Shown here piece by piece: positions 14,486-51,005 of a stretch of 64,000 nt of DNA (positions are counted from its first letter, which is position 1; every line of letters begins with the position of its first letter). Under the pieces are notes generated by a model, which ran no database searches, had not been told where the DNA came from, and saw only the letters and a program-made list of their open reading frames with translations. A program made the position numbers and the translations under genes. The DNA comes from an uncultured Chthonomonadaceae bacterium (GTDB taxonomy: Bacteria; Armatimonadota; Chthonomonadetes; Chthonomonadales; Chthonomonadaceae). The stretch is taken from positions 120,329 to 184,328 of the forward strand of contig CAWIEK010000016.1 of the NCBI GenBank assembly GCA_963835065.1. The letters are read 5' to 3'.

Positions 14486-17400
14486 TCAGCGCGCTTCTTC
14501 CTTTGTTTCCTCATCCCGGATACTGATGCGCTCCTCGTTGGACAGCGCGCGAACGTCCGGCGCGTACATGGCGTAGCTGTTGGCGGGCAGGGCATGGAAC
14601 GCGCCCGGAGTTTCCGCCCGCAGCCGGTACGTCAGCACGCGCCTTCCCTGCGGCAGTTGCGAGATGAAAAACGCCACTTTCTGATCCCGCAATTCCATAT
14701 TCGCGTACAGCCCCTGCCCCGCGTGTTCCCCGCTGCGCACTTCTACGGGTTCGCATCCCGCCGGCTTGATGTCTTCCAGCAGCACGTAATCATAATCGTT
14801 CTTAGCCTCCAGCCCCAACTCCACTTCCAGCAGGTCGCCACTGTTCAGCAGTTCTCCCGGCGCAAGCGCAACCCGCGTATACACCGGCCCCTGCTCCGTC
14901 CCTTCCTCCCGCACAACCACAATCCCCGCGTCCAGCAACGCATAATCTCCGGTGAGGAAAGCGTTAAGTGTTGAGCGTTGAGCGTTGAGGGAATTGCCGA
15001 TTGCCGATTGGGGTTTTACTGTTCCCTGTTCCCTGTTCCCTGTTCCCTGTTCTGTCTCCTCTTCTCCTTTTCTTCTCTTCTTCTCTTCTTCCCCTCCCCC
15101 CGCCGTGCCCGCAATCAGGCGGAAGTAGCGGCGCGATACGGCGATTTCGTTGCCGGCTGCCGGAATGGGTTCTTCCTGTGAGAAGGTGCGCGTGGTCGCC
15201 GTGTAGTAACAGGTTCCGGCTCCCTGCCGCGTAATGGTCACGGTTTGGTCACCGGTTTGCAGCAGCGCGTCGGGTACAACGAAAGTATTGTCGAAGAACA
15301 GCGCGTTGGCATGGTTGACGCGGTACGTCCGCTTGATTTTGTCGCCCATGCTGACCGTCAGCGTGTAATCGGGAGCCAGTTCCTTTTTAACACGCATCCA
15401 ATCGGCCAGCGCGTTCACGGCAAGGGCGGTATCCCGCGTGTCGCGCCAGATGCTCCCCTGCCGGTTGTTGACCAGCCACTTGACCAGCATCGGCGGCAGT
15501 CGCGCCATTGGGCGCAATCGCCATGTACGCCTGCAAAATCGTCGCGTTGGTTTCGATCTTGTTGTTGTACCAGCGCCACCACTGCCCCTCGCTGTCGTCC
15601 CAATTGGCCGTGCCGTTCGCCGCGTCCGTATGCACGGTGTTTTCCAGATTGCGCAGCACGATCCGCGCCTGCTCGTCCTTGCCCGTGTCGTGCAGGGCAA
15701 GCGCTAGCAGCGCCTTGCCATACGCGCTGCAGTTTTTCGCGCTGCGGGAACAGTTTGCCTTGAACGCGGTTCTTCAACGCAGGCCGCATTTCAGGAATCA
15801 ACGCAAGCACCCGCGCCTGATACGCCATCTGGTGCAGATCGGTTTCCTCCAAAAACCGCGCCTTCAAGTACGTTTCGCCACGTTCGAGTTCATTCCCCGG
15901 CGTCACATAGCCCGCCTTCTGCCCCATCAGCAGCCCGTACACGACATACGCGGTCATGTAGGCGTCACTGGTATCGTCCTTCCACCAGCCCCAGCCGCCG
16001 TCCCGGTGCTGCATATCGCGCAGCCGCGCCAGCCCGTCCTTCACCATGCGGTTCAGTTCCGCGCCGTTGAAAACCGGATTGTTCAGGCGGGGCGCGGCGT
16101 AGTACGCATACTGTGTCGTGTTCAGGTTCGGCTTGCCGGTCGGATTGGCTGTGGGATAGGTGTACGGGCTGTTTTCCGTTACCTGCTTCGGGCCGTTCGC
16201 CGCGTTTGCCAATGCCGCTTTCCGCCGCGCCGTCGCTCCCTTTTCCAGATCGCTCAGATTATAACCCGTGTCTTTCAGCGTTTGCGCCACGATCACCGAT
16301 GGTATGAACCGCGACAGGGTTTGCTCCACGCAGCCATACGGATAATCCGCCAGATACGGCAGGGCGTCCAGCATCACGCCCGCAAGCGAGGGATTGAGCG
16401 TCACGACAACCTGCGAACTGCCCGCCTTCCGCGCTTCCGGCAGGTTAATCGTCACCTGCGCGGGCAGCGTATTCCCCGCTTTCATCACGCCGCTTTGCTG
16501 CGTCTGCCGCTCCACGCCATGCACAAGGACGGGTATAACCGTTTCCGTCGCATCCCCCTGCGTGGTAGACTGCGCCGTCATCTGCGCATGAATGACGCCC
16601 TCCATCTTGGGCCGAACCAGCCAATCCACGCGCTGCTGTCCGTTCTTCGGGATCGTCACCCAGGTCTCATTGGTACGCGGGTGTCGGGTGTTGGGTGTTG
16701 GGTGTTGGGTGTTAGGCAAATCCGCCAACGTTTGTGTCTGCTGCGAACCCGCCTGCTGAACGTCAGTCTTCCCCAACACCCCATCCCCAACACCCGACAC
16801 CCCTTCCTTATCCTCCCCCACCACATCCGCGTTATCCAGATCGAGTTTCACGCGGATACGGGCGTCCTGCTCCGTGTCGTTGTGAACAACCGCGCTCAGG
16901 GTGGCGATGTCGCGCTCCACGAGGAAACGGGGCGCTTCCAACTGTACCAGCACGTCCTTCTTCGTCGTCACCCGCGTTTCGCCCGTGCCAACCTGCGCGG
17001 CCTGCGTACTGCCGATTGCCACCGCCCGCCACTGCGTCAGGTTGTCCGGCCATTTTACGCTCACAGTTGCCTGTCCCTGCGCATCCGTCACCACCGCCGG
17101 CGTCCAAAACGCCGTATCCCGGAAGTTGGAGCGCATCGTCGCCTGAGCCAGTTCCCCACTCGCCAGCCGTATTGGTTGAACGCTGTCAAACACATGGGGA
17201 TCTGGAACCTTCCTCCAAGTTACTTTGGATGGATCGAGCGCGCGTTTGCCCGTAGCCGTGACCATCCCTGCCGCATCCACATACATCGCGCCTTTTTCAT
17301 CGACCGCCCCGTTATGGGAAATGTTAATGTTGCCGTTCACGAACATGCGCCCTCCCGAACCCGGCATACCGGACGGCGCGGAGAAAGCAGGCGTTAAGCG

Positions 17401-20400
17401 ACTTTCATACACGCCTGCGGACATGCCGCCGGCGTCCACTTCATAATACAGGTTGTTGCCACCGAGTCCGCCCTTACCTCCGCCTCCCACACTTCTTCTT
17501 GCGAGGAACCGTTCATGTCCGTGATGTACCCCGTAGCCGAACAGTCCGTACATCGCTTCGGGTGAAACCGGGATTTGCCCCATGTCTTGTGGGAGCGGGA
17601 GCGGATGACGCGCATATTCCTTGAACGGCTGCGCCCATCCCTCAATGGTTTCAAAGCCATTGTCAAACGAGCCGTTCATCTGGATGCTGTTGCTGCGCTG
17701 GCTGCCGTAGAACGTTGTCCGTATGTCGGGCGCGTAATCTTTCTGGATGTAGCTCAAGGCGGCGTCGGCAATGGCAAGGCTGAATTGCGCGCGCAGAGGT
17801 TTGCCCCGGTAGTCCAGCGCCTGCACGTTCAGTTTGGCTGTTTCGCCGGGCTGATAACGCGCCTTGTCCGCCGTCACCTTGACCAGCGCCGTCTGCTGCA
17901 CGGGCGGCACGAACAACTCCTGCGACGCCTGAAACATCGCTCCATCCCGCACCATCACGGCGGACACGAACACATTGGGCGCGTCCCGGCGCGTCAGGGG
18001 AATGGGCAGTTCCAGACTGCGACCCGCCACCCGGACAACGCGCTTGTCGAGTATCTGCCCTTCCACTTCCCGCGTCAGCAGCACGGCGCAATTGGGCTGC
18101 GGGCGTGACCAGCAGGACGCGGGCGGTTTGCCCTGCCGCATAGTACGGATTCTTTATCGCCAGAAACACGCCCTGAAACAAAAACCGCTTTTCGCGCAGT
18201 TCCGGCCCGTCCACCCACACATCTTCGCCCTTCGACACCAATTTGCCATCCCCATCCGTCGTTTCATACGCGATGCGGAAAAACCCGGACGTGTTCGCCT
18301 TCCATTCGATCATCGCCCGTCCCTGCGCGTCCGTGTTCAGGGGAAAGGACGTGACGAGTGTTTCCTTGCCGTTCGGATCGTTGGGCTTGCGGAAGACCCG
18401 CGCCGTGCCATGCGCGGCAACCGGCTGATCGGACGGGTTGAGCGTTTTCACTTCCACGTCTACCCGGTCGCCCTGCGTGGCATAGCCATGCGCGAAGTTG
18501 AGGAACACGGCCACGTCATGCTCGGTTGCTTTCAGCGCCCCCGATCCCGAAATAGTCCGGCGGCTCTGATCCTGCACATCCGCTTCCACCGTAAAACTCA
18601 GGTCGCTGCTTCCCCCGTTCGCCGCGTTCGTTTTCGTCTCAAACGTGACCGTCGCATCCCCCTTTGCGTCCAAAACAGCCTTGCCCTGCGTAATCACCTC
18701 GCCATTGCGGTAGTTCGTGTCATAACTGCCCGCATTATCCCCCGCATGGTACAGGTAATCGTAAGGCTCCGGGAACCGATAGGAGGGGCTGTACGCCGTC
18801 CGATACACCCGGTACGTCACCTTCGCGCCCGGAACCGGCCCGCCGAAGTAGTACGCCGCATGGATTTTCGCGCTCGTCGGCTGCCCCAACTTCACCCGCT
18901 CCGCAGACGGCGTGACCGTCACCTCGAACTCCGGCTTCTTATACTCCTCCACCCGAAACCAACTCCCCGCCGTCTCAACCCCAACCTCTTCTCTCTTCCT
19001 GTTCCCTGTCCCCTGTCCCCTGTCCCCTGTCCCCTGTCCCCTGTTCCCTGTCCCCTGTTCCCTGTCCCCTGTTCCCTCCCCTGATGAGCGTTACCGCCAT
19101 CGAATACTCGCCCAAAGCCGCATGAACGGGCAGAATGAACGAGCCGGACACGCTGCCAAATTCCGAGCAGGGCGTCCGCTGCTTGTAAATCAGATTGCCC
19201 TGCGGGTCCGTCACCACAACGCGGGCAATGGCATCCGTGACGGGTTTCAAGTCGCCGATGTTGCCCTTAGCGGCGTTTTCGCGCCGCATCAGCAATTGCC
19301 GGAAATGCACGGCCTGCGCCGGTCGGTAAACCGTTCTGTCCGTGACTCCATACCCCTGATAGCCCGCCTGCCCGAAGTAGCCGCTTGCATTGGTATAGGT
19401 GAGCGGCGTCACGGCGTACTGATTGCCCCGGCTGCCGAGCGCGGCGATTTGAACCTGCCCTTCATTGGGCGCGCGATGCAGGGGAATGGAAACCACGCCG
19501 TTCGCGTCGGTCACGCCCCTTACCAGCGCGGAGAACTCTTTCTCGCCCTCCGACCACCATTGCTTTGTCAGCACCCCGATGCCCGCAAGCGGCTTGCCCG
19601 AAATGGCATCGGCGGCGTAATACAGTGTGCGGCCCCGATCCATCTTCTGCACCAGCGCGAGATCGGAAACCGTGACCACCGCGCCCGTCGTCATTCCCGG
19701 CACAGACGCCACTACGACATACGCGCCCGCGTCATGCAGGGGCGTGACGATGTTTTGGGCATGGCCGCGCAGGGGCGTCACATCTTTGGGCGTAGTCGTC
19801 CATGCCGCAACGCGAACCGCGCCAAGTGCCCTTAGCGCCTGCTGTTGCGTTTTGGTGTTTTGAAGCAGCGAGGAAACCCGCAGCCATTGGCTGTTATCGG
19901 CGTTGCTGACCGGTTTTCCTGCCGGGGCGTCGCTGCGCCATATTGCAGCAGATCAAAGCGGTATGCCTCGAACCGAATTTTCGTCACGTTGCCGTAATTA
20001 ACCGCCAGCTTGAGGGCATTGCCCGGACGCGGCGTTCCCACAGCCGACAGCGACACGGACGGACGGCGCAGATCGGCAAGCTGCCCCCGCGCATCCGAAA
20101 CCCACTTGCTGTGCGGGCGAGCCGCAATCAACTGCTGTAATGCCGCGATCCCCTGTTCTAATTTGCCTTCCTGCATCAGCCAGGTCGCGCGTAAATACTG
20201 CGCTTCATCGCGCAGGCTGTCGTTGGGATAGGCGCGAACCAGCGCGTCCAGCATACTCCCCGGTTTCAATTCCTGATACGGAAACGGGATACGAACGGGC
20301 TTGTCATGCTCGAACTTCACGGCAATGTTCGTCATTTGGGCCTGATACTGCCGCAGCCACAGCGCCTGCGCAAACAGCGCGACGGCATGAGGATGCGCCG

Positions 20401-21187
20401 ATTGCGCGGCCAGTTTCCCGATATGCGCGTAAAGATACAGCGTCTTTTTCGGCCCCGCCCACTGCAAATCGTAAGGCTGCGCGGCGTCAATGCGCCAACT
20501 TGCATCCCCCGGCGGCAGCCAATTCTTATTCGCCATCCACGCCGCGTTACGCGGGTTTTGCTGAAGCAGATGAATCAGGTCGAAATCCAGTTGGATGCGC
20601 TCATTGGCGGTCAGGCGATTGGCGTTTTGCGGGTCGGCTTCCGCGTACCGGACATGCGCGGCTTCCAGAGCATCCAGCGCGTTACGCGAATCCGCCGCCT
20701 GTAATTGCACGGCAACGGGCTTGTCGTTGCCCGTCGTGGCGGGAACATCACTGCCGCGATGAATGGTTGTGCCGACGCGGTAGCCGGAATGGGGCGCGTT
20801 CAGGTACATGCGGCCCAGCCAGTACAGCCCCCGCGCTTCCCAAACCGTATGCTGCCGCGTTTTCACAAAATCCAGCCCACCCGCGAACATCTTATCCCAC
20901 TGCTCGGTTTTGCCAAGCGAAACCACCACGCGGTACGCGATCTCATCCCGGCGCTCCGGCGGTATCTGCCCCGCGTTTTGCAGAACCGTGTAGGCTTGCA
21001 GCGCCCGCTTGTAACTCTTCTGCGCGTACTGCTTATCCGCGTTCCGCAGCGCAACGGAACCGGCCTGCGTACCGGCATCCATCTGCCACGCCCACGCCGA
21101 TCTGCCGCAAGCCAGCATCAGCGCCGCTCCAAAAACCATTCGCCGCGCCGCTCTGCCGACTGAATTCTCTCTGTTCCCCGTTGCCAT
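14486..21187 (-). CDS. Bacterial alpha-2-macroglobulin family protein, split over several ORFs by frameshifts
   Basis: TDRTVYRP, VEEYKKPEFEV, RSNFRDTAFW, WPDNLTQW, thioester PYGCVEQ, DGGWGW, AMYAP; three repeat-derived insertions. Confidence 0.9.
18998..19074. repeat. 11 x CCTGTYC heptamer inside A2M gene
   Basis: Counted directly. Confidence 0.95.
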
Positions 21188-21455
21188 GTCGTCTCCTGAA
21201 GGTTTTGCATGCTTCCGTATGTCACTTTGAAAGTTGGACGTGTTTTCCTGCCGCCTCGTTACTTTTACGCTATTGCAATGTTGGTTCCAAAAGCCGCGCA
21301 AAAGGTTCAGAGCTAATGATAAAAATCCAACAAGCAGTAACACAAATAGCCCCTCCCCTGGCGAAGGAAGCGCGTTTACTGCGCTTACAACGCGCTCATT
21401 TGAAAGCGCGGCCAGGAGAGGGGTATGTCCACAGTTGGACGCCCGTGAGGTAACT

Positions 21456-21981
21456 CTACTTCGAGAGATGGCGCGATTTAGGCTTTGAATGCATGGGAAC
21501 GGCGGGCGCAGGCTTCTTGCCCGCCGGATACCAGAACACATTCTTTGCGTCTTCGGGCGTCAGCAGTTTGGCGTGGCCGTCCGTAAAAGTTACCGCCGCG
21601 CGTCCGCTATGCCTGAAAGCGAACTGCATGTTTTTGCCCTCATAAAAGAGGACGGTTTGCGCGGGGAACTTCAAGGCCGCGAGCGTCGCCCCCTGCATAT
21701 TGGGATTCATCACGTAGCTGATGGTTCCCTTCGCGTCCAGCGGGCATTGAAATACCGCGTTGTTCTTGACATAGGGAAAAATCACTCTGTTGTACGGCGC
21801 TTTCTTGCGCGGAAACACCTCATCGTAATCCTGCACGTACATCAGGACGCCGAGCGCAAGTTGCTTTTCATTTGATAAGGCAGGCAGCGTCGGACGGCGT
21901 GAGTTGCGGAGTCTGGTGTCGGAAGCCGAACCAGCTTACACTGGCGCACAGAAGCGCGAACAGCGGTAGTAATTTTTTCAT
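21456..21981 (-). CDS. Short H-X9-DG (DUF1559 C-terminal-like) secreted protein, frameshift near 21872
   Basis: MKKLLPLFALL leader; LMYVQDYDE, FRHSGRAAVTFTDGH; paralogue of the next gene. Confidence 0.75.
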
Positions 21982-23107: not shown

Positions 23108-23129
23108 GGTGTTCTCCTGTGAGGGGGAG

Positions 23130-23237
23130 GCATTAGGCATTAGGCATTAGTAAGAAAATTAATTGCGCAAGCTGTTCCACATCAGAGTAGGGTTTTGTCT
23201 TCTTCCCTAATGCCTAATGCCTAATGCCTAATGCCTG
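23130..23237. repeat. Inverted heptamer array (GGCATTA)n ... (TAATGCC)n
   Basis: Read directly; supplies the stop codon of the GH78 gene. Confidence 0.95.
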
Positions 23238-27285: not shown

Positions 27286-27531
27286 ATGTACGTAGTTTCA
27301 CGGTTTACCGGCGTACTGTTTCTATTTTTTGCCGGGTATATGGCCCTACATTCTTTGCGTCTGCTCAAATTACAGCAGGCGTTTCTCAGCACAAACCTGC
27401 ATCAGCCGGTAGATAATCACACTCGTATAATCTGGGGCTGTGAGTGCCTGCTCATAACCTTCGGCTTGCTGGCCTTCGGACTTCGCCTGATCCTCAAGCC
27501 TGTGCGATTAGACCAGCAAATATCCTGGTAG
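27286..27531 (+). CDS. Small two-TM protein
   Basis: AGGAG RBS; two hydrophobic segments. Confidence 0.65.
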   Translation: MYVVSRFTGVLFLFFAGYMALHSLRLLKLQQAFLSTNLHQPVDNHTRIIWGCECLLITFGLLAFGLRLILKPVRLDQQISW

Positions 27532-27543
27532 AGAAAGAACCCT

Positions 27544-27596
27544 GCCGCTGCGCCGGAACCTGCCCAAACAGCCCGACGTATCCTAACCACAGGAGG
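27544..27596 (+). promoter_or_regulatory. ECF-type promoter plus RBS, direct repeat copy A
   Basis: GGAACC-N16-CGTATC ... AGGAGG; 49/53 identical to 28583-28635. Confidence 0.75.
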
Positions 27597-27605
27597 AAAG
27601 CAGAT

Positions 27606-28139
27606 ATGTTCCGTGAAGACAAAACCACACAGATGGCCGCGCGCTTCCTGCAATTAGCCGGAAAACGACTTCCGTACATCCAATTGCTGAAACTGCTTTA
27701 CCTTGCGGATAAGCAAATGCTCACTCAGCACGGAAAACCAATCACATACGACCGTTGGTATGCGATGAAATACGGCCCGGTGCTGAGTTCGACCTATGAT
27801 CTCATTAAGGGAAATAATCAATCCGAATACTGGTCAGATTACATCCAAACTGCGAACTATGACGTGGTACTTTGCAGCGACCCCGGCTCTGATGCTCTCT
27901 CGGTAACAGAAGACCGCATTATCGAAGCAGTGTTTGAAGAATACAAAGATCGCAACTGGCAGCAGATGGTTGATGTTACGCATCAATTGCCTGAGTGGGA
28001 GAATTCAGGCAGCGCCTCGAAGGAAATAACCTACGAGGAAGTGCTTCAGATAGAAGGTTTCGACAAAGAAGACATTGACAACATTCTGGACAATATACGT
28101 GTTCAAAATGATGTACATCTTGTTCTGGAGACGTTGTAA
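27606..28139 (+). CDS. Panacea/SocA (DUF4065) family antitoxin
   Basis: LLKLLYLAD, PITYD, AMKYGPV, THQLPEW. Confidence 0.88.
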   Translation: MFREDKTTQMAARFLQLAGKRLPYIQLLKLLYLADKQMLTQHGKPITYDRWYAMKYGPVLSSTYDLIKGNNQSEYWSDYIQTANYDVVLCSDPGSDALSVTEDRIIEAVFEEYKDRNWQQMVDVTHQLPEWENSGSASKEITYEEVLQIEGFDKEDIDNILDNIRVQNDVHLVLETL

Positions 28140-31480: not shown

Positions 31481-32773
31481 ATGCACATCGCCTTTATCAG
31501 CTACGAATATCCACCCGAAACGCCCAACGGCGGCATTGCCACGTATGTCCAGCAGGCCGCGCGCATGTTGGCGGCGCGTGGGCATGACGTGGAAGTGTTT
31601 GCCGGCAGCCCCACCCGTGACGCCACGCTCCCCACCGACGGCCTGCTGATTCACCGCATCCATGTGGCGCAGCGCCCCGACTTCGCGGCCCGCGTCGCGC
31701 CCGCCTTTGCCCGCCGTCACCAGGCCGCGCCCTTTGACGTGATGGAAGGCCCCGACTACGACGCCGACGCCCGCTTCGCAGCCCAACAAGTCCCCGACCT
31801 GCCCTATGTCGTCCGCCTGCACACGCCGCGCTATCTTGCTGAGATTCTGAACACGCCGTTGCAAGAGGGGGAGAAGAGGAGAGAGGGTGAAGAGGAGACG
31901 CAGGAGGGAACAGGAAACAGGGAACAGGGAACAGAAGGAGCGGATGTCCTATCAACGATCAACGATCAACGATCAACTACTGATTCATCCTTCATCCTTC
32001 ATCCTTCATCCTTGTTTGACTATGCATACCGGCATGTCATAAAGGCAGACGGCATTACGGCTCCGTCGCAGGCTATGCGCGAGATTGTTGCGCGAGACTG
32101 GCAGATACCATTAGAACGCATTACGGTGTTCCCGAACGTGTACCGGCCTTCTCCGGCCCTGCTGCAATTACCGCCCGCGCCGGACTCGCGCATTGTTACC
32201 TACTTCGGACGCCTGGAACAGCGTAAGGGCGTGATTACCCTGGCCCGCGCCATTCCCGCCATTCTGCGGGCCTGCCCCGACGCTCGGTTTCGCTTCGTAG
32301 GCCGAACGCTCGAATCGCCGGAACCGGGTATAACCATGCGCGATTACCTTGCGCGGCTGCTCGCCCCCTGCGCCCATGCCGTCACCCTGTCCGGCCATAT
32401 CTCGCTGGAAGAGATTCCCGCATTGCTTTCGGACACGGCTATCTGTGTTTTTCCAAGCCGATGGGAGAACTTTCCCGGTGTGTGCTTGGAAGCGATGGCG
32501 GCAGGCCGCGCGATTGTCGGCAGCGAAGCGGGCGGCATGGCCGATATGCTACAGGAAGACACGGGCGTTCTGATCCCTCCCGACAACCCGCAACGCATTG
32601 CCGATGCCGTAATTAGTTTACTGTCTGATCCCGAACGTAGAGAACAAATAGGACAAAGGGCGCGGGGTCGCGTTCAGACCGTTTACAGCCCAACTCAATT
32701 GGCTCCTCTACAGGAAGCAGGTTATGAGGCAGCTATCCGACAGAAGCGGGAGAGGGATAAATGGCTACTGTGA
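31481..32773 (+). CDS. GT4 glycosyltransferase with repeat-derived in-frame insertion
   Basis: EYPP, GGIATY, GRLEQRKG, ENFPGVCLEAMA. Confidence 0.92.
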   Translation: MHIAFISYEYPPETPNGGIATYVQQAARMLAARGHDVEVFAGSPTRDATLPTDGLLIHRIHVAQRPDFAARVAPAFARRHQAAPFDVMEGPDYDADARFAAQQVPDLPYVVRLHTPRYLAEILNTPLQEGEKRREGEEETQEGTGNREQGTEGADVLSTINDQRSTTDSSFILHPSSLFDYAYRHVIKADGITAPSQAMREIVARDWQIPLERITVFPNVYRPSPALLQLPPAPDSRIVTYFGRLEQRKGVITLARAIPAILRACPDARFRFVGRTLESPEPGITMRDYLARLLAPCAHAVTLSGHISLEEIPALLSDTAICVFPSRWENFPGVCLEAMAAGRAIVGSEAGGMADMLQEDTGVLIPPDNPQRIADAVISLLSDPERREQIGQRARGRVQTVYSPTQLAPLQEAGYEAAIRQKRERDKWLL

Positions 32774-37350: not shown

Positions 37351-38142
37351 TTGCAGCAACGGGAGGAACGGGAACGCACCGGCAAGTTTTTCGTGACCGG
37401 CCTGCGCTTCATAATACAGGCGCATCAGCAGGGGGCACACATCGAGTCGCTTTTTGTGTCGCCTCCACTGCTCGTCAGTGTGCCGGGACAGCGCCTTGTC
37501 CGCAAATTGCGAATGGCAGGAACGCCCGTTTACGAAGTGCCTCCCGAAGTGCTGCACAGTATCTCGCTCGTGGACGATCCGCAGGGATTGGGAGCCGTCA
37601 TCCGGCAGCAATGGCAAACATTGGACACCCTGCGCCCCGGCAAAGAACTATGTTGGCTCGCCCTCGACACCGTGCAGTCTCCCGGCAATCTCGGAACAAT
37701 TCTCCGCTCCTGTGACGCGGTCGGTTGCGCGGGCGTGATTTTGTTGGGCGAGGCCACTGACCCTTATGAGCCGTGCGCGGTGCGGGCAAGCATGGGCGCT
37801 TGCTTCGCGCAGAAATTCATCCGCGCCACTCCCGCCGACTTTCTGGCGTGGAAACAAAAACACAAATGTACTCTCGTTGGAACGTCGCCGCATACCGGTG
37901 AGGATTACCAGCAGGCCGCGTACCCTGCGCCCGTCGTGCTGTTCATGGGCAGTGAGCGCAAGGGCCTGTCTTCGGAACTCCAAGATCTGTGTGACGGCAT
38001 GGTGAAAATCCCTATGGTCGGAACCAGCGACTCGCTCAACCTCGCCATCGCCACCAGCGTCCTGCTGTACGAAGTGTTCAACCAGAGGCGCGGGGAGAAA
38101 CCAGACAGGGAGAAGAGGAGACAGGGAGACAAGGAGATGTAG
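37351..38142 (+). CDS. TrmH/SpoU family RNA methyltransferase (true start probably upstream; frame is open further 5')
   Basis: PGNLGTILR, GSERKGL, IPM, SLNLA. Confidence 0.9.
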   Translation: MQQREERERTGKFFVTGLRFIIQAHQQGAHIESLFVSPPLLVSVPGQRLVRKLRMAGTPVYEVPPEVLHSISLVDDPQGLGAVIRQQWQTLDTLRPGKELCWLALDTVQSPGNLGTILRSCDAVGCAGVILLGEATDPYEPCAVRASMGACFAQKFIRATPADFLAWKQKHKCTLVGTSPHTGEDYQQAAYPAPVVLFMGSERKGLSSELQDLCDGMVKIPMVGTSDSLNLAIATSVLLYEVFNQRRGEKPDREKRRQGDKEM

Positions 38143-38852: not shown

Positions 38853-38977
38853 GGGTTCAGAGGTGTTCAGGTATTCAGGTATTCGGATATTCAGGTGTTC
38901 TGTATTGATATGACTTGGTAATAGTCTACAGTGTGTAGAAAATAACTATTCCTGAACACCCGAACACCTGAATACCA
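38853..38977. repeat. Inverted octamer array (GGTRTTCA)n ... (YGAAYACC)n
   Basis: Read directly, between sigma and anti-sigma genes. Confidence 0.9.
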
Positions 38978-38993
38978 ACACAAAAGAGGAGTT

Positions 38994-40187: not shown

Positions 40188-40223
40188 GGATAGTTTTCAG
40201 TTGATAGTTAATATCGCAAGATA

Positions 40224-41654
40224 ATGAAAGGAAAGGCAGACGACATGAAACGAACGAGAATTGGCTGGATGGGACTGGCGATGCTGCTTTCGGGTGGGGC
40301 GATGGCTTCGCCGCCGGATGCGAACCGCGCCGGGGAGCCATTTATTGTACATGAGTGGGGAACCCTGCTCACCATGAACGGCTCGGATGGCGTTGTGCTG
40401 GACAGCATGTACCATGAGGAACATTCGCTGCCCGATTTTGTTCACGCGCTCACGCAGGATCAACTGTACCCGCCCGAAGCGCTGTTCAAGTTCGAGACGC
40501 CGGTGATCTATTTTTATACTGACCGTCCGCGCAGCGTGGATGTCACCGTGAAATTCCTGACAGGCATCTGGACGCACTGGTTCCCGCAGGCCGAAATCGC
40601 GCGCAACTTCATGGCAAAACCGGACGCGAACCCGCCCGCAAAACCCTTTACCTTTTCAACAGGAAAGGAGCCAATTCGCCGGGGAACCCTGCGCTGGAAA
40701 GCGGAACTTCTGCCGCCGACTTCCGCGCTGGAAAGCCTGCTCCCGTACACGTCCGGCGACTCGCTGTGGAACTTTGCGCGGCAAGTGGATGCGGCCTTCG
40801 TCCGCACCGCGCCCAACAGAACTGATGCGCAAGCGAGAAACAGGTCAAAATCACGTACCATCACAGAAGCCGATTTGAACCCGCAATCACCACTCGAAAA
40901 TCGGCAATCGAAAATCGGCAATCAGCAATCGGCAATCAATCCCAACGGGCTGGAAACCGAGCGCTATCTGTTTTATCGGGGCCTGGGAACCGCCCATCTG
41001 CCCCTGCAAGTGAACGCAAGCAACGGCGGAACACTGTCGCTGCCCTCGAATGGCGGCGTCACGCTGACACACCTGTTCGTGCTGCGCGTGGAAAACGGCA
41101 AAGGCGCGTTCCGCTACATTCCCGCCCTCAAACCCGGCGAAAAGCTGGATCACGCGCTGCCGGATACGAGTGCCGCCGAATCTCTGCCCGCTTTTACTTC
41201 CCATGTGAGTGACGCCCTTGCGGCAAAATTGGAAGCAAGCGGCCTGTATGCGAAAGAAGCGCGGGCAATGGTAAACACCTGGCGCAGCAGCTACTTCCAA
41301 TCCAATGGCGTTCGGGTGCTGTACGTGCTGCCGCAAACCTGGACGGAAGCGTTCATCCCGATGCAAATCACGCCCACTCCCGACCGGCTGGTGCGCGTCA
41401 TGGTGGGCCGCACGGAACTGCTCACGCCCGACCGGGAACAGCAAATCACGCAGGCCGTCCGCGCCTGGGCCGGTCCGAACCCCGCACTGCATAACGACGC
41501 GCTCCAAACGCTCCACGCGCAGGGCCGCTATCTCCAGCCTATCCTCCGCCGCCTGCTGCGCACGACGCCGGATGCAGCGGTCAAAGCCAACTGCCGCGCC
41601 CTCCTGCAAACCGCCTGGGTCAACGTCCTCGCCCCCACCGCGCTGACGAAATAA
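40224..41654 (+). CDS. Secreted conserved hypothetical protein with repeat-derived insertion
   Basis: Signal peptide; VHEWGT, ETPVIYFY, LFYRG, GLYAKEARAM motifs. Confidence 0.8.
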   Translation: MKGKADDMKRTRIGWMGLAMLLSGGAMASPPDANRAGEPFIVHEWGTLLTMNGSDGVVLDSMYHEEHSLPDFVHALTQDQLYPPEALFKFETPVIYFYTDRPRSVDVTVKFLTGIWTHWFPQAEIARNFMAKPDANPPAKPFTFSTGKEPIRRGTLRWKAELLPPTSALESLLPYTSGDSLWNFARQVDAAFVRTAPNRTDAQARNRSKSRTITEADLNPQSPLENRQSKIGNQQSAINPNGLETERYLFYRGLGTAHLPLQVNASNGGTLSLPSNGGVTLTHLFVLRVENGKGAFRYIPALKPGEKLDHALPDTSAAESLPAFTSHVSDALAAKLEASGLYAKEARAMVNTWRSSYFQSNGVRVLYVLPQTWTEAFIPMQITPTPDRLVRVMVGRTELLTPDREQQITQAVRAWAGPNPALHNDALQTLHAQGRYLQPILRRLLRTTPDAAVKANCRALLQTAWVNVLAPTALTK

Positions 41655-41655
41655 A

Positions 41656-41907
41656 CCACGGGGAACACGGAGGACACGGGGAGGGAAAAGGGGAGAAGAA
41701 ATACGTATCACGGATGAAACGGATGAAACGGATGAAACAGATTGACGCGGATAACAGGAAAGCCTCTGATTTGATCCGTGTACATCCGTTTCATCCGAGG
41801 TACGTACTTCTCTCCTGTTCTCTTTTCTAATTCTTCTCCGTGTTCTCCGTGCCCTCCGTGGTTCCCTCTCCCCTTTCCCTCCCCGTGTTCCCCGTGTTCC
41901 CCGTGGT
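41656..41907. repeat. Nested inverted nonamer arrays
   Basis: CACGGRGRA outer and CGGATGAAA inner left arms with matching reverse-complement right arms. Confidence 0.9.
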
Positions 41908-42002
41908 TTCTCCTGTTTTTGGCGGTGTACTCCTTCCGGCGGGTATAATAGAGTGGTTGGAAATTGACTGTGCTGGAGAGGAGCGAGAACTTGAGCGATA
42001 CC

Positions 42003-44994
42003 ATGACACCGGATGCGCGGCCCGCGGCGGCAACCCCCGACGCGCTGCACCTGCCTGGCCTGGCCGAACCCGTCAGCCCGTTTGTCGGCAGGCATATTGG
42101 CCCGCGCCAGCGCGATATTCAGGCGATGCTTGCGACTTTGGGCGTGGATAGCCTGCAGGAACTGATTGAGCAGACCATTCCCCATCAGATATTACCGAAC
42201 GGCAATCCCGTTTTTGGAAAATTAACACAGGTCGGTGAGGGCTGCACGGAAGCCGAAATGCTGGCGCACCTGCGCGAACTGGCGGATCAAAACCAGATAT
42301 GTAAATCCTATATCGGCATGGGCTATTCGGACTGCATCACGCCGCCCGTGATTTTGCGCAACCTGCTGGAAGACCCGCGCTGGTACACGCCCTACACGCC
42401 CTATCAGGCGGAAATATCGCAGGGGCGACTGGAATCCCTGCTCAACTTCCAGACCATGATTCTGGATTTAACGGGCATGGAAATCGCCAACGCCAGCCTG
42501 CTTGATGAGGGAACGGCGGCAGCGGAAGCCATGCACATGGCGTGGGGCATCAAGGGCGCGGAAGGCAAGGCGTTTTTCATGGCGCGGGACTGCCATCCGC
42601 AAACCCTGGCCGTCGTGCAGTCCCGCGCCGAGCCGCTGGGCATCGAAATTGTGGTCGGCGATCCGCTTACGTTCGGGTTTGACCGCCCCCTTTTCGGCGC
42701 GTTGCTGCAATACCCGGCAACCGACGGCATCATTCACGATTACCGCGCCTTTGTGGAAAAAGCGCACAGTGCCAACGCGCTTGTCGTTGTCGCCGCCGAT
42801 TTGTTGAGCCTGACGCTGATTACGCCGCCCGGTGAGTGGGACGCGGATATTGTTGTCGGCAGCGCGCAGCGTTTCGGCGTCCCGATGGGTTACGGCGGGC
42901 CTCACGCGGCCTTTTTCGCCACGCGGGATACCTACAAGCGCAACATTCCGGGGCGGCTTGTCGGCGTCTCCCGTGACGCGGAAGGCCGACAGGCTGTGCG
43001 CCTGACCCTGCAAACCCGCGAACAGCACATCCGCCGCGACAAGGCCACGAGCAACATTTGCACCGCGCAAGCCCTGCTCGCCAACGTCGCGGCCATGTAC
43101 GCCGTGTATCACGGGCCGGAGGGCTTACGCAGTATCGCTCGGCATGTTCATTTTCTCGCTGCCCAGTTCGCCAACCGCTTGAAGGGATTGGGCTACGTAA
43201 TCAGTGACGAGCCATTTTTTGATACCGTCCGCGTACCGCTCGGCAAACACTCACTGAAAGGAATACTCGAACGCGCCGAAATGATGAGCGTTAATCTGCG
43301 CGTTCTCAACGAGACCACGCTGGTCGTTTCTCTCGACGAAACCACTGCGCCGGATGATGTGAAAATACTTATCAACATCTTTGATCAAGACAACGACGAG
43401 TGGATACTTGACAATAACCAGCCTGCCAGCGTTGAAGATATTCGAGCGGGTGAAAATCGAAAATCGAAAATCGAAAATCGAAAATCAGCTTTCCTGACGC
43501 ATCCGGTTTTCCACAAGTACCGCTCGGAACTGGAAATGCAGCGGTACTTGAACAAGCTGGCGAACCGGGACTTCACGCTGTCCAACGGCATGATTCCGCT
43601 CGGCTCGTGTACCATGAAATTAAACGCGGCGGTAGAAATGATCCCCATAACATGGCCCGAATTTGGGAAGATTCATCCGTATGCGCCGGACGAGCAGGCG
43701 CAGGGGTATCTCGCCCTGATTCATACGCTGGAAACCATGCTGTGCGACATTACCGGGTTTGCCGCCGTGTCCTTGCAGCCTAACGCCGGTTCGCAGGGCG
43801 AGTATGCGGGACTGTTGGCGATCCGCAAGTACCATCAGGCGCGGGGCGAAGCGAAGCGCAACGTGTGCCTGATTCCCCATTCCGCGCACGGCACAAACCC
43901 CGCTTCGGCGGTCATGACCGGCATGAAAGTGGTCGTCGTGAACACGGATGAAGCGGGCAACATTGACGTGGCGGATTTACGCGCCAAAGCCGAACAGCAC
44001 AGCGCCGATCTGTCCGCCCTGATGATAACTTACCCGTCCACGCACGGCGTTTTCGAGGAATCCATCGTCGAAATCTGCGACATCATTCACCGGAATGGCG
44101 GGCAGGTGTACATGGACGGCGCGAACATGAACGCGATGGTCGGGCTGTGCCGCCCCGGCGACTTCGGCCCGGACGTGTGCCACCTCAACCTGCACAAAAC
44201 GTTCTGCATCCCGCACGGCGGCGGCGGTCCCGGCGTCGGTCCCATCGGCGTCGCCGCGCACCTCGCGCCGTATCTCCCGGCAAAAGTTGATAGATAAGAA
44301 GTTGATAGTTGATAGTCAAGACCCGAATTCCTATCAACTATCAACTATCAACTATCAACTCCTCGTCAGCGCCTCCCCCTACGGCAGCGCCAGCATCCTG
44401 CCGATTTCGTATGCCTATATTCGATTGATGGGCGCGGAAGGGATGAAGCGGGCTACCGAAATCGCCATTTGCAACGCCAATTACATTGCTCGGCGCTTGG
44501 ACGAGCATTTCCCCGTCTTGTATCGGGGTAAAAACGGACTGGTGGCGCACGAGTGTATTCTGGATTTGCGGCCCGTGCAGGCAAGCGCGGGGATCACGGT
44601 TGAGGATGTCGCCAAACGCCTGATGGACTTCGGGTTTCATCCGCCGACGGTTTCGTGGCCGGTCAATGGAACCATGATGATCGAGCCGACAGAAAGCGAG
44701 TCGAAGGAAGAACTGGACCATTTCTGCGACGCGCTGATCGCCATACGGCAGGAGATACGCGAAATAGAGGAAGGGCGCGCGGACAAAGCCAACAATCCGT
44801 TGAAACACGCGCCGCACACGGCAGAACAGGTTTCGCGCACGGAATGGAACCATCCGTACAGCCGGGAACAGGCCGCGTACCCCCTGCCCTACCTGCGCGA
44901 CAACAAATACTGGCCGCCCGTCGCCCGCATAGACAACGTGTTTGGCGACCGCAACGTCGTCTGCGCCTGCCCGTCCATTGACGAGTACAAGTAG
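42003..44994 (+). CDS. gcvP: Glycine dehydrogenase (decarboxylating), frameshift near 44285
   Basis: [55 protein letters not shown]. Confidence 0.97.
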
Positions 44995-44995
44995 C

Positions 44996-45064
44996 AAGGG
45001 AAGAGGGAAGAGGGAAAAGTACGTAACAATCTCGCTTTTCCCTTTTCCCTCTTCCCTCTTCCTT
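44996..45064. repeat. Inverted heptamer array (AGGGAAG)n ... (CTTCCCT)n between convergent genes
   Basis: Read directly. Confidence 0.9.
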
Positions 45065-45069
45065 GGTCG

Positions 45070-45483
45070 TCAGTAGCCGCCGAACTGCTGGCCGGAATTG
45101 CTGTTGTTGTAGCCCCGGTAGCCGCTGTAGGCTTGCGCTTCGTCCGCGGGAACCTGAATCCCCCCGGTCGGCGGCGTAACCCAGTGCGCCTGATGCGTTT
45201 TCGGGTCGCGGTAGTAGATGCGCCCGTTTTTGGACTGGTAATACTGCACGGTGGCGGGCTGGTTTTGCGCGTTCTTGTGCTTTTTCCACATATAATACAG
45301 CGCGGCGGCTCCGGCCAGCAGCACCACTTTCTTCTTGGTGGACATATTGGAAAGCGGGTTCTGGCGCGCATACGCAATCGGCGTCAAACATACAGGCGCA
45401 ATCAGCGTCGCCGCAACCGTCAGCGCTTGCAGCCGCAGCCGCGCATTGTATGTGATAGGATAGTGTTGTTGAACCGTCAGCAT
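45070..45483 (-). CDS. Small secreted/membrane hypothetical protein
   Basis: AAGGAAG RBS; KKKVVLLAGAAALYY, YYQSKNGRIYYRD. Confidence 0.75.
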   Translation of the reverse strand: MLTVQQHYPITYNARLRLQALTVAATLIAPVCLTPIAYARQNPLSNMSTKKKVVLLAGAAALYYMWKKHKNAQNQPATVQYYQSKNGRIYYRDPKTHQAHWVTPPTGGIQVPADEAQAYSGYRGYNNSNSGQQFGGY

Positions 45484-45730
45484 AGCGTTCTTCCTTATAT
45501 ATCGAAATTTGTTAAGCGTTGCTTGCAATATCGCGCTTCGGCGGAAAGCAATCGGCGTATTCGTGTGCAAAGACGCGCCGAACCTGAAATTGTTCCCGGC
45601 TTCCAGTTCCGGCATCTCTACCTTAGCGTTCTGCGGACGAGGAAATTTGTGAAAAGCATCGCGTCTGAACGCTTGTTTTGCTCCGGGGATTTTCAGGCTC
45701 GCAATCGTCCACTTACCAGAGGGTTTTCTA

Positions 45731-48700
45731 ATGACTTCTTCGACATCTATTCGGATACATGCTTACTCCCATCTACGCTGGTGTCTGCGCTTGGCGGGCG
45801 TCGTGCTTCCTATCGCGCTGCTGTCGGGTTCCGCGTTGGCGCGGCGGCAAGCGCCCGCGCAGGATGCTGTCTGGCTGGAAGGCGAAGGGTTTACGGCTTC
45901 CAACATTGCTAAACCCAACATTAGCGGATGGGGGCATCCTGAGTGGCTGTCGGGGGAGAAGTGGCTGCAAGTGTCGGTTGACGCCGACAAGGTGGAGAAA
46001 GAACTGCCTGCCGGGGGCGGGCTGCTGACGTATGCCTTTAATGTCGGCCACGCGCATGAGTACGAAGTGTGGAACCGCATCGGCTACGAGTTCGTGCGTT
46101 CGCCGTTTCAATGGCGCATAGACAACGCCGACCTGGCAAACCATATCGCCCGAACAGCGCACTACCGACCTGATGGAATTGCAGGACTGGAACGAAGTGG
46201 CCTGGCTGAAAATGGGAACGCAACCCCTGACACCCGGTCCGCACATACTAGAAATCCGCCTGCCGCAACTCAAAGACGACAAGGGCCAACCCGCCCGCGT
46301 CCTTTACGCTTCCGACGCCCTCTGCCTCTACCCCGGTCACTTCGCCCCCAATGGCCGCAACAAGCCCGGAACCAACCCGCGCACAAAGGCGGATGAGGAA
46401 GCGGCGCAGAAGGTGTTCAGATTGGCAGAGGGAACAGGGAACAGGGAACAGGGAACAGTAGGAACCAATTCATCACTCATCACTCATTATTCATCACTTC
46501 CCCTATCCGGTCTTTGGGAAATCTGCCGCAACGATGAGGATTTGCCCACTGAAGTGGCCGCGCCGATCAAGGATTTTCCTGCCGAGCCGCACTGGTCCGC
46601 CATTCAGGTTCCCGGCGATAGGAATACGCTGCGGCCTGATTTGCTGATGGCGCACCGGGTCTGGTATCGGACGCGGGTTGAGGTTCCCGCCGACGTTATC
46701 AGGCAAAACGGCGGACGCTCGTTTCAGATCGTGTTTCCGCAGAACAACTTGAACACGACGGTTTATGTCAACGGCGTGTACTGCGGCTTTAATAAGAACC
46801 CGTATGCGCGATTTGCCATTGACGTGACGCCGGGTATCAAGGCGGGCGTGAATGAAATATGGGTGGGAATCAAGGACGCCTGGTACGGCTATTCCGCCAA
46901 TCCCAAAAACCCGATGAAATTGCGCAAGGTGTTCAATCTGCCGCTCAGTTTCACGCACAACGGCTTTCAGGATTTGGCGTATCCCATCTGGAACGGCTTT
47001 TATTCGGGTATTTTGGGAACGCCGGAATTCAAAGTCAGCGGTTCGAGCTACGCTTCCGATGTGTTTGTGCGCCCGTCCGTGAGCAAGAAGCAGTTGGCGG
47101 TAGATGTGACGCTGAAAAACGCCACGAATGCAGACGCGGCGGGCGAAATCGTGTGCGAGGCCGTGAACGCGAAAACCGGCAAAGTGGAAAAAACGTTGGG
47201 AGCGAAGCCGTATACCATTGGCGGCAATTCGGAGCAGACTGTCACGCTTTCCGAAGCGTGGGAAAACCCGGCGTTGTGGTGGCCCGGTACAAATCCCGAC
47301 TATGTACGCGCTGCGAACTACCATCAAGCAGGGCGGCAAGGCCATAGACGTATCGGAAACGCCGTTTGGGTTTCGGGAATGGGGCGCGAAGGGCCGGGAT
47401 TTCACGCTCAACGGCATCATCTGGCATGGATGGGCGGACTTGCAGCCGGGAGCCACACCGCAGGAGTTCCTCGCCAACTACCGCGCTACCAACCAGAAAG
47501 ATATGCGCTACATGGGCGTGTCGCAGAACGGCGTCAATTGGATGGGTCTTGAACCAACCGCTGCGCTGAACTTTTTCGACCAGAACGGCGTGGTTGTGCG
47601 ACGGTGCGGACCACTCGACGGCGAAGCCATCGGCTACAACGCCAGTGGAAAACGATCCCGATTTGAAGGCGCTGTATAAATCCGACATCAAAATGGACTT
47701 GATGCAGAACTGGCGCGACCAGATGGTGCAGCAGGTGAAGGGCGAGCGCAATCACCCGTCCGTGATGCTGTGGTCACTGGAAAACGAGTGGCTGTACATC
47801 AACTGCATCAACCTGTACGGCGGCCTGATGGATCAATTTGAGGCCGAAGTCAAGAAGTGTTCGGACGCGGTACAGCAAGCCGACCCGACGCGCCTGACCA
47901 TGACGGATGGCGGCGGCGCGAACAAGGATCAGTCCATGCCCGTGCATGGCAACCACTACGTTTTCGACCTCAACGGCAAATACCCCGATCTCGCGTATGA
48001 CCTAAACCCCACAGGCGGCGGCAGAGGACGCTGGATATGGGACGAAAAACGCCCCCGCTTCATCGGTGAAGATTATTTCGCAACGGGAATCAACCCCTTC
48101 GATTACGCTTATTTCGGCGGCGAGGAAACCTTCGGCGGCAAAGCGCAATCTCATGGCGCAATGGCGCTCGTTTTCCGCATGTTGACCGAAGGCTACCGAT
48201 GGGCCGGACAAAGCGCCTGGCATCACTGGGTCGGCCCGGACGATATGGACGCTTTCAAGGGAACAGGGAACAGGGAACAGGGAACAGGGGAAGAAGAGAA
48301 GAGGAGAAAAGAAGAAGAGAAGACTGGAAACCCGACACCCGACACCCGACACCCAACACCCTACCTTTCGCAGTCGCCCCGCGCCGTATTCTGCCGACAG
48401 TGGGATTGGACGTTTGGGAGCGGGCAGAAGGTGAAACGGACATTGGGGATTTTCAATGACACGCATGACCCGGACCCGATTACCCTGACGTGGACGCTGA
48501 CCCTTGCCGGAAAGAAGGTGCAGACGCAGACGAGTACGCACACCGTTGCGCCGGGTGGCAATGAAAAGTTCGATGTGACGCTGGACATGCCCGTTGTCAA
48601 TGCGCGAACCGAAGGAACCTGGACGCTGACGCTCACGGAAGACGGCAAGCAGGCGTTTCAGGACAGCAAAGCGGTTTCAGTGTTGAACGCGCGCCCCCGT

Positions 48701-51005
48701 CCGCAGTCCGCGCAGGCGGAGGGGTTGGGGAAGCTTAGTGCGAAGAACCTGTTCGTGTATGACCCGAATGGAAGTGTGGGCGCGTTCCTGAAATCCAATG
48801 GGCTGGCGTTCACATCCCTGGCGAGTTTGAAAACCCTGCCGGACAGCGGCGCGGGTGCTGGTGGTTGGACGGGACGCGCTGGATGTGACGGAGAGTACGT
48901 CGAGCCGATTGGCGGCGTATGCGAGCGAGGGCAGAACCGTCCTTGTCCTTGAGCAGAAGAACCCGCTCAAATACACCGCGCTTCCGGCGGAAATGGAACC
49001 CGCCACGAATGAAGGCCGCACCGCCTTTGCCGAAGACCTTGACCATCCCGTGTTTGCCGGTTTGCGGCAGAAGGACTTTTTCACGTGGGGCAGTGACGAA
49101 GTGGTGTACCGCAACGCCTACCAGAAGCCCTCGCGTGGCGGCAAATCCCTCGTTCAGTGCGATATGCGCCTTGCCGATACCGCCCTTGCGGAAATCCCGA
49201 CGGGAACCGGCCTGCTGCTTGTCAGCCAATTGTGCATCGGCGAAAAATTAGCTAACAATGCCACCGCGCAGCAATTGCTCCTCAACCTGCTGGCGTATGG
49301 GGCGCAGTACAAACTCACGTATCGCCCCGTAACCGCCGTCATCAGCGACGCCCCCCTGCTCGGCAGCGCCTTAGACGCCATCAGCCTGAGCTACGCCAAA
49401 TCCGACAATCCCCTTGCCGCGCTTTCGCCCAACAACCAGTCACCGGCCACCAGTCACCAGCCACGTATCGCGCTTATTGAAGCCACGCCCGCCAATTTGA
49501 AGGTTCTGGCGGAAAATACGGGCAAGGTGAGCGCGTTTACGGGCGCGGGCGGCTGGCTGTTTTTGCATGGCCTGACGCCGGAAGGACTGGCTGATTACAA
49601 CAAAATCGTCGGCGTGGAGCATTTGATACGCCCCTTCTGGCGGGAGCGGGTTGCGTTTCCCGCGCAGAAATCCCCGCTTGCGGCGGGACTGACGACGGGC
49701 GACATCGTGATGCGTTCGGGCAAGAAGATGTTCAACTACAACTCCGATGAGTGGGTCGCGGACGACGTGTTTACGTACTGCGTGGATTACGACGACGTGG
49801 CTCCGTTCGGCAAGTTCGCCAACGACTTCCACCGCAACATGGTCAACGGCATGGTGTCCGCGGACGGCTGGCCCTACATCATAGACCTGCCGCAGAAGGA
49901 CGCGACGTTCCCGATTCAGTTTCCCAAAACGCAAACCATTACGCATTTGCGCTGGATCGGCAACCGTATGTACAATCCGCCGACCCGAATCGCGCTTGCG
50001 GCGGACAATGGGCAGGCGATGCCGATAGACGTGAAGCCTACCGACCAGCCACAGGAATTCGACTTATCCACGCCCCTGACCGGCAAGGATATAACGCTGA
50101 AGATTACCGATGTGGAGCGCGTCAAGGATACGGAAATTACCGGCCTGGACAATATCTCGCTGATCGCAAAGCGGCCTGTGGATTTTTACCAAAAGGTGAA
50201 GCCGCTCGTGAACGTGGGCGCAATCATGGCGTATCCGCGTGGGACAGGCGGCATTTTGCTGTGCAACCTGAAATTGCAGGCCAGCGAAGCGGTTCCCGAA
50301 AATGGGGTGAAGAAGCGGACGATCCTTGCCACCCTGCTGCGCAACCTGAAAGCGCCGTTTGCGGGCAAAACCGTGATTGCGGGCGCGAAACTGGCGTACC
50401 AATCCATTGACATCGGCAAATTCGCCAATCAGTACCGGGATGAGCGGGGCTGGTTCGGGGATAAGCAGCGCACGTTTGCCGGGCTGCCGACCGGAAAACA
50501 AACCTTCGGCAACGTGCCGTACCAAATCTATGACTTTCCCACGTCGCCCGTTCCCACCGCCATTATGCTCGGCGGTTCGGGCGTTCCCAACAACATTGCG
50601 GAAGCCGTGAAGAGCATCCCCGTTGGACGCAAAGCCGACGCGCTGTTTTTCCTCCAAACCGCGCGCATAGACAACCCATTAAACGATCAGGAACGGCGCG
50701 AAAAGAAACAGGTGGAATTGTTCAAGTACATCATCCACTACGCGGACGGGCAGACAATCGAAGCGCCGCAGTTTGAGGATATAGACGTCGCCAATTACGC
50801 GCAGGCCGTGCCCCTGCCCCTCCCCGGCGCGCAGATCGCCTGGACGCGCAAGTACGACAACGGAGCCGAAACCGCCGTCGCCTACTCCAAACAATGGAAC
50901 AACCCGCGCCCCAACATAGCGATTGAAAGCATAGATGTCGTCTACGGCAAAGACCGGCGCGGCGTCCCTGCCGTCCTCGCCATTACCGCTGCCACCGCGC
51001 AATGA
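45731..51005 (+). CDS. Large secreted GH2-like glycoside hydrolase, split over four ORFs by frameshifts
   Basis: Signal peptide, WYRT, VYVNG, LWWP, FGFREW, ERNHPSVMLWSLENE; three repeat-derived insertions. Confidence 0.85.

Follow-up and report, generated by a model that had tools for sequence, protein, structure and literature searches.

In a 64,000-nt stretch of the genome of an uncultured Chthonomonadaceae bacterium (hereafter the window; G000:C16:120329-184328, in an assembly of 8.0 Mb and 71 contigs termed G000), short tandem-repeat arrays interrupt unrelated protein-coding genes while leaving their reading frames open. We put at roughly two in three the probability that these arrays are coding members of a genome-wide class of two-armed elements with 7- and 8-base units, which occupy slots shared between genomes, are rewritten in place and are translated as protein loops.

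An earlier note, based on the letters of the window alone, had described eight such arrays. All of them were found where that note placed them and in open frames, the peptide GTGNREQGT does recur at four sites in three proteins, and the proposed host names are backed by Pfam, with no family detected in the hypothetical protein. The array observation as a whole is thus confirmed, and two coding arrays that had been overlooked, in gcvP and in the gene for the bacterial alpha-2-macroglobulin (A2M), can be added to it; both are out of frame in the G000 assembly (Table 1). Alignment with orthologues from the same family and order revealed that the repeat-derived peptides are absent from them; at the 14960 site, the A2M of the comparison genome G001 has a comparable stretch of low complexity. 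Some of the apparent insertions replace a variable loop, as in the GT4 glycosyltransferase, in which the segment spans 72 amino acids (aa) in the window protein and 46-54 aa in 11 relatives. Overall, the earlier interpretation is partly supported.

A genome-wide family of two-armed elements

Tandem Repeats Finder identified 2,365 heptamer, 678 octamer, 282 nonamer and 140 decamer arrays in G000 at a score of at least 40. Fifty-one unit families of 7-10 bases define 2,124 merged elements, amounting to 137 kb. The density of heptamer arrays reaches 295 per Mb in G000, compared to 35 in 1.56 Mb of G001 and 0 in 0.8 Mb of G005, genomes that were examined as blocks (1.56 of 6.6 Mb and 0.8 of 3.4 Mb, respectively). 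One unit pattern was present in five of the 31 genomes searched, and the reversed control pattern returned no matches. Together with the difference between G000 and the 800 kb of G005, this indicates that the arrays are not chance occurrences.

The elements present a fixed build, with a purine- or G-rich arm followed by a spacer and a C-rich arm: among 993 multi-array elements, 778 follow the G-to-C order and one follows the reverse. Arms have a median length of 4.4 copies, two-array elements span some 55-128 nt (10th to 90th percentile), and the spacers of hairpin-type elements have their mode at 55-60 nt. Most elements are intergenic, with 180 of the 2,124 lying strictly within genes. With respect to the 5,253 modelled open reading frames (ORFs), G-rich arms predominate directly after stop codons (940:53) and C-rich arms before ATG codons (506:81), and 310 ORFs end inside an array. 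Within the window, the stop codon or last codons of a gene come from repeat arms at 1265-1297, 4944-4962, 23206-23236 and 38103-38137. Matched inverted arm pairs occur in 428 of the 848 other multi-array elements, compared to only 20 of the 145 coding ones, and the non-matching arms of the remaining 125 coding elements imply that these cannot form a hairpin. A group of about 25 longer inverted CACAGAGG/AGAGACAC 8-mer elements, with spacers of 150-300 nt, have non-periodic internal sequence in common (e.g. C2:32022-32337).

Slots are shared between genomes and filled with different units

G001 yielded 49 elements. Orthologues in G000 bracketed 26 of them, and for 22 of these a G000 element was present at the same place. 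The shared slots comprise 12 of 13 coding sites and 10 of 13 intergenic ones (10 of 11 coding sites if two in gcvP that had been preselected are set aside), the baseline being the 19% of ORFs that carry an array after their stop codon. The same unit pair was seen in only one of the 22 shared slots, and three others had part of it in common. One glmS slot illustrates this pattern: it measures 99, 96 and 102 nt in G000, G001 and G002, with three different arm pairs, whereas in 11 other genomes it lacks repeats and measures 36-63 nt. Likewise, the ileS slot spans 122, 75 and 83 nt, as opposed to 12 nt in 15 of 16 other genomes and 24 nt in the remaining one, and slots in dxs, gltB and recQ repeat the pattern of glmS. 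The closest relatives of the GT4 protein (88% and 72% identical) contain other modules in the same slot. At gcvP 44284-44360, a contig of run X3 (~95% identical) aligns without gaps on both flanks and presents 75 other letters instead of the 76 in the window, so that the frame would be kept. Judging from this one joint, the letters that follow 44283 in the X3 contig resemble a different arm family.

The same turnover is apparent in ribosomal RNA. One 23S helix contains three different unit pairs in G000, G001 and G002, and another 23S site is occupied by a perfect heptamer hairpin in G000, by a non-repetitive hairpin of equal length in G001 and by a tetraloop in G002 and G005. Relative to G005 and G002, the hairpin expansion of G000 encompasses a 159-nt instead of a 38-nt block, plus a second 23S site. 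The 23S genes of G000 (C49:338082-341304 and C51:114802-118025; L324, L327) are about 240 nt longer than that of G002 and hold three long hairpin expansions, two of them clearly heptamer-armed, and the 16S rRNA contains one heptamer hairpin as well (C51 ~119480-119600). These expansions are candidates for intervening sequences or expansion segments.

Shared slots could also reflect independent local origin, whereby each lineage fills a few tolerant loops by slippage, without copying between loci or an inherited slot. Slippage on 7-mers is the standing proposal for such repeats, according to PMC4679880, and the loop at the second GcvP site contains heptamer-type arrays in four of 68 distant genomes (Nostoc, Chroococcales and two Verrucomicrobia), which means that part of the slot sharing can be independent filling of hot spots. 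The spacers, moreover, are mostly unique, with a 14-mer common to 39 of 256, and no target-site duplication was detected, 4-nt flanking repeats being as frequent as in controls (12/336 vs 15/336). Local origin leaves unexplained, however, the fixed polarity of the arms, the limited vocabulary of 51 units and the long junction strings common to unrelated loci, and the 10 of 11 unselected coding sites of G001 are occupied in G000 even though only ~160 of 5,253 genes there carry an element. We therefore deem it improbable. In unrelated phyla (L117 Runella, L091 Nostoc, L119, L120, L143), the same GcvP loop holds other repeat-derived peptides, one of them an insert that is not heptameric.

Coding copies maintain frame and orientation

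By a codon-model screen, 180 elements have an open frame and coding flanks; 177 of these are distributed over 160 genes. This is a lower bound, given that the screen missed the GT4 and hypothetical-protein cases of the window. A set independent of openness was assembled from 95 elements bracketed by one reference ORF in the fetched parts of G001 and G005, and 71 of these were open before any rows were dropped. One-by-one inspection revealed that stop-containing hairpins apparently inside genes were antisense shadow ORFs over intergenic gaps, gene junctions or rRNA. Sixteen rows (15 non-open, one open) were dropped after inspection, leaving 79 curated coding sites, of which 70 are open, eight shifted and one stopped. 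The non-open fraction does not differ (p=0.15) from the indel background of G000, estimated by six-frame blastp in fast mode from 350 orthologue-bracketed control stretches, 22 of which were disrupted. An automatic filter yielded 60 open elements out of 71, where 13.2 would be expected for random frame, phase and strand, and in the cleaner G001 assembly all 13 coding elements are open, in agreement with the earlier suggestion that insertions are selected for frame. Coding arrays are nearly all composed of 7- and 8-mers, with a unit length not divisible by three.

The host genes, named from 44 of 56 reference proteins, include ileS, murD, ligA, glmS, dxs, ispDF, carB, gltB, recQ, trmFO, glnE and a birA-like ligase. 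The presence of inserts in housekeeping enzymes, previously advanced for GcvP, hence extends far beyond it. For unit families that are stop-free in both directions, the orientation yielding a polar peptide prevails by 248:20 within genes and by 53:30 between them (p=2e-9), and the bias affects both G-rich (93:13) and C-rich arms (26:1). The inserts are enriched in E, S, T, N and Q and depleted in V, W, Y, F, A and L. The GGGAACA unit is present in sense in 93 coding elements; since a 7-base unit runs through all three frames every 21 bases, the recurrence of a peptide requires no cause at the protein level.

Alignments and structure mapping place the arrays in variable loops and linkers, as the earlier note had anticipated. 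The first GcvP site lies in the linker at which most relatives split the gene in two, and when GcvP is aligned to PDB 4LGL, both sites fall where the match is poor. For GlmS of G002, a model built from an alignment, with insert limits placed from invariant columns, has a mean predicted local distance difference test (pLDDT) of 84.7 and a core near 90. The values fall to 63 and to 66-67 in the two slots, both of which lie between helices; these dips are supportive only, because insert-free regions such as 261-280 dip further. A single-sequence AlphaFold run on G001 GlmS yielded no usable model (pLDDT 33). The median net gain per coding site is 14.5 aa (21 aa with respect to G005 alone), and at 21 of 70 sites the gain over the reference protein is three aa or less, indicating that many elements replace an existing loop. 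For GT4, we abandoned the notion that every non-repetitive loop in G001 is a decayed element, since this loop occurs throughout the family. GcvP (41964-44994 of the window and L002-L004) is a fused single chain in this genus, in G014 and in G025, as opposed to the two-subunit form of most members of the family and order, which suggests gene replacement.

Inserts might never reach the protein if they were removed or skipped at the RNA level, in the manner of rRNA intervening sequences or of ribosome bypass. Perfect hairpin copies in 23S and 16S rRNA, genes for intervening-sequence (IVS) proteins inside repeat arms and the nine non-open coding sites, among them ileS (in two genomes), are all compatible with such a process. 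RNA removal would nonetheless relieve the inserts of any constraint on their length and orientation, whereas the observed frame and peptide polarity are under strong constraint. Moreover, most coding multi-array elements are unable to fold into the hairpin, and the disrupted fraction does not differ from background. Frame, orientation and loss of arm pairing thus favor translation, and removal from the RNA appears very unlikely.

Since a single unit shifts the frame, gain and loss of 7-base units could also switch genes on and off through phase variation, and the longest array of the window, with 11.4 copies in A2M, is indeed out of frame. Against this stand the nature of the hosts, which include ileS, ligA, murD, glmS, dxs and ispDF, the narrow range of arm lengths (4-5 copies) and the uniformly open frames of G001, so that we attach little credence to a switching role.

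The G000 assembly presents numerous single-base indels, with a fragmented rpoB and a frame-shifted rpoC tail, compared to intact genes in G001, G005 and G015; RpoB/RpoC alignment revealed non-repeat frameshifts in G002 too, making both assemblies error-rich, and no arrays were found in the aligned stretches of RpoB and RpoC. The A2M and GH2-like genes are broken at non-repeat places as well, and three breaks of the latter (47298, 47647 and 48844/5) are each due to one additional base that independent contigs of related strains lack. In spite of these errors, the view that the arrays are a consensus artefact of long-read assembly has practically nothing left to it, being already contradicted by independent genomes: other genomes, and proteins from independent sources, have arrays in the same slots, and independent contigs run into the arrays.

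Mechanism and gene-bearing cassettes

For three of the 10 window elements tested, strings of 37-50 nt spanning a module junction recur at other loci, which points to copying between loci. The lack of target-site duplication and the mostly unique spacers fit poorly with classical transposition of MITEs (miniature inverted-repeat transposable elements). Arms would more likely be rewritten in place through copying of DNA between loci, presumably by ectopic conversion, combined with slippage. Purifying selection would then probably retain only versions that are polar, stop-free and in frame; the likely translation products of these versions are tolerated, presumably near-neutral loops.

Some genes of G000 lie between facing arms. 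All three genes for PF05635 (four-helix-bundle) proteins and all three for PF13366 (GxxExxY) proteins are bracketed in this way, each with its own unit, and the polarity of the arms is the reverse of that around ordinary genes. Searches in metagenomes with one PF05635 protein returned 561 relatives; among the best 80 of these, 66 had full flanks, and inverted arms were detected in 39 of the 66 loci, compared to arrays of any kind in two of 55 control stretches. Upstream arms in these loci are G-rich (63:3) and downstream arms C-rich (63:4). The elements may tentatively be viewed as gene-less derivatives of such cassettes, in which the same kinds of arms surround a gene, encoding either an IVS protein with a four-helix bundle (7/8-mers) or a GxxExxY protein of the nuclease family (8/9-mer-type arms).

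An ORF of at least 84 aa found in two copies (C12:70498-70974 and 75778-76254) between GGTTTTAG / CCTAAAAC arms is a possible third type of cargo; long-spacer inverted pairs in G000 revealed no clear further cargo family. Reverse transcriptases are encoded twice in G000 (C49:681660 and C50:52695) and once each in G001 and G002, and none were found in G005 or in the repeat-bearing G015. For the one at C50:52695, a match of orthologue size exists in G001 and G002, and ~650 nt upstream of it lies a heptamer hairpin.

Several observations weigh against the interpretation of the arrays as shared, rewritten and translated elements. To the filled GcvP loop of distant genomes and the block-wise coverage of G001 and G005 must be added the nine disrupted coding sites of G000. 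The ileS slot (G000 C53:31335-31440; G002 L331) leaves a remainder of 2 mod 3 in both of these genomes and is in frame in a third, pointing to either error or recoding, and direct proof of assembly error is limited to the three GH2 breaks. Since the polar orientation coincides with the A-rich one, selection at the RNA level is possible, and a non-periodic 22-mer is common to 1,304 of the 2,124 elements, in a count made without a control. No rewriting enzyme was identified. PF05635 does not track the repeat load: searches of G001 and G015 did not detect it, and G005, without arrays in 800 kb, possesses it. On this distribution PF05635 was rejected as an obligatory driver, and the cassette is a plausible parent rather than a demonstrated driver.

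A broader scenario, which we consider doubtful, would see in the arrays selfish two-armed elements that cross phyla, with the four-helix-bundle/GxxExxY cassette as their gene-bearing form. An active process working in trans would overwrite resident arms throughout the genome and so change the loops of hundreds of proteins, some of them essential, within ~5% sequence divergence; it would also explain the bacterial heptamer excess, noted long ago.

Relation to known repeat systems

Long simple sequence repeats (SSRs) with heptamer units have been described as the short tandemly repeated repetitive (STRR) sequences of cyanobacteria, as GGGAATC arrays in Xanthomonas and GGGGA(C/T)T arrays in Nostoc, the latter two with comparable placement and a preference for four units (PMC4692102), and as TAACTGA repeats in Beggiatoaceae (PMC4679880). 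The elements of G000 resemble these in their 7-base units, their roughly four copies, the G-rich arm that follows stop codons and, in the opposite strand, precedes starts, their convergent pairs, their mainly intergenic distribution with a minority in ORFs, and the role of stop codons in setting orientation within ORFs. They differ in mixing 51 unit families of 7-10 bases as modules, in lying inside conserved and essential enzymes, whereas the coding copies described before are mainly at protein edges, and in that a given slot is refilled with different units from one species to the next. None of the units published so far (GGGAATC, GGGGA(C/T)T and TAACTGA) is among the 45 commonest 7-mer families of G000. 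A parallel to slot turnover is the P6b stem-loop of the Nostoc trnL group I intron, where one position is built from alternative heptamer classes (Class I and Class II), with repeated class shifts in related strains (PMC4476775); that case concerns a single RNA stem, whereas the elements of G000 are genome-wide and include coding slots with non-pairing arms.

The earlier note had invoked Rickettsia palindromic elements (RPEs) as a precedent. RPEs are units of 105-146 bp with conserved sequence and terminal inverted repeats (reviewed in PMC2229807), and the likeness to them and to coding MITEs lies in tolerated in-frame additions to conserved proteins and in insertions in RNA genes. As a model of one fixed mobile unit the precedent fails: the elements of G000 are tandem arrays of variable length and sequence, their arms are mostly non-complementary in genes, target-site duplications are lacking and a slot may hold different units. 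They are hence a variant of heptamer repeats, similar to STRR, and not RPEs.

In Coxiella, the 23S IVS contains heptameric repeats just upstream of an S23p / PF05635 ORF (PMC4990558). The rRNA copies of G000 share with it the stem-forming ends and the replacement of a 23S tetraloop by a long hairpin. In G000, however, the ORF-bearing copies lie between mRNA genes and the rRNA copies lack the ORF. The tandem repeats in the ORFs of Borgs (PMC9879509) are likewise fast-changing DNA repeats that generate low-complexity protein segments, but their units are divisible by three, whereas here 7/8-base units are common to hundreds of loci and it is the total length that keeps the frame. Within the literature searched, which left subscription papers mostly outside, no account was found of genome-wide in-place replacement of units in coding slots, or of a cassette of arms plus PF05635 outside rRNA.

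Features of the window

The coordinates of coding and intergenic elements, their host genes and the cassette genes are listed in Table 1. At window positions 45606-45835, upstream of the GH2-like gene, a related strain presents 843 other letters, defining an indel polymorphism. The ORF at 27444-28139 resembles a Panacea/DUF4065-type antitoxin.

Table 1. Repeat elements, host genes and cassette genes. Positions refer to the window unless a contig of G000 is named.
Feature	Position	Strand	Remarks
Bacterial A2M gene	14486..21541	-	at least 5 ORF pieces; single 2,239-aa frame in G001
Four-module element, A2M C-terminal region	14960..15091	-	one purine 8-mer and one GGGAACA arm, then two C-rich ones; in frame
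Inverted pair of GGGTGTT / CCCAACA arms, A2M	16679..16802	-	in frame
11.4-copy GGGACAG/GGGAACAG array, A2M	18998..19077	-	frame changes across array in G000 assembly
Four-module element, GT4 glycosyltransferase (31481-32773)	31864..32013	+	replaces variable loop; in frame
AATCGAA/AATCGGC array, hypothetical protein (40224-41654)	40894..40937	+	in frame
gcvP, glycine dehydrogenase	41964..44994	+	two ORF pieces in G000 assembly
Five perfect (5.0) GAAAATC copies, GcvP inter-half linker	43452..43486	+	other unit family at same place in G001
Second gcvP element, AGTTGAT / CTATCAA arms	44284..44360	+	one base out of frame in G000; in frame in G001, with a different unit family
GH2-like gene	45731..51005	+	relatives have ~1,700 aa; interrupted by single additional bases in G000
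GGGAACA arm and TCATCAC arm, GH2-like gene	46429..46498	+	in frame
Three-module element, GH2-like gene	48258..48361	+	in frame; ~35 aa longer than orthologues
ACCAGCC array, GH2-like gene	49435..49464	+	in frame
Intergenic hairpin-type element, ATTAGGC / CCTAATG	1265..1363	+	first arm provides upstream stop codon
Intergenic four-module element	4944..5058	+	
Intergenic hairpin-type element, AGGCATT / CCTAATG	23128..23236	.	
Intergenic 8-mer hairpin-type element	38861..38976	.	
Nested 9-mer inverted arrays upstream of gcvP	41657..41905	.	
Intergenic hairpin-type element directly past gcvP stop	44997..45062	.	111 other letters instead of 78 in independent contig
PF05635 genes with own inverted arms	C25:14102-14416, C8:32017-32325, C33:57207-57524		directly past host stop codon
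PF13366 genes with own inverted arms	C19:8329-8673, C39:76631-76981, C3:174084-174431		directly past host stop codon

Implications

The excess of heptamer repeats in bacteria has been reported but is unexplained, and this genus provides a dense and testable case of it, together with a candidate gene-bearing parent. Notable are the fixed polarity, the inherited slots with turnover of their content and the reach into essential proteins and rRNA, a combination of which the literature searched gave no description. In practical terms, repeat-derived peptides lead both annotation and similarity searches astray, and assemblies made from short reads break at the arrays. If the inserts are translated, at least ~3% of the proteins (160 of 5,253 modelled genes) would contain loops that change fast and draw on a small vocabulary of peptides. 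The elements would then map the insertion-tolerant sites of essential enzymes and provide a route to new disordered segments.

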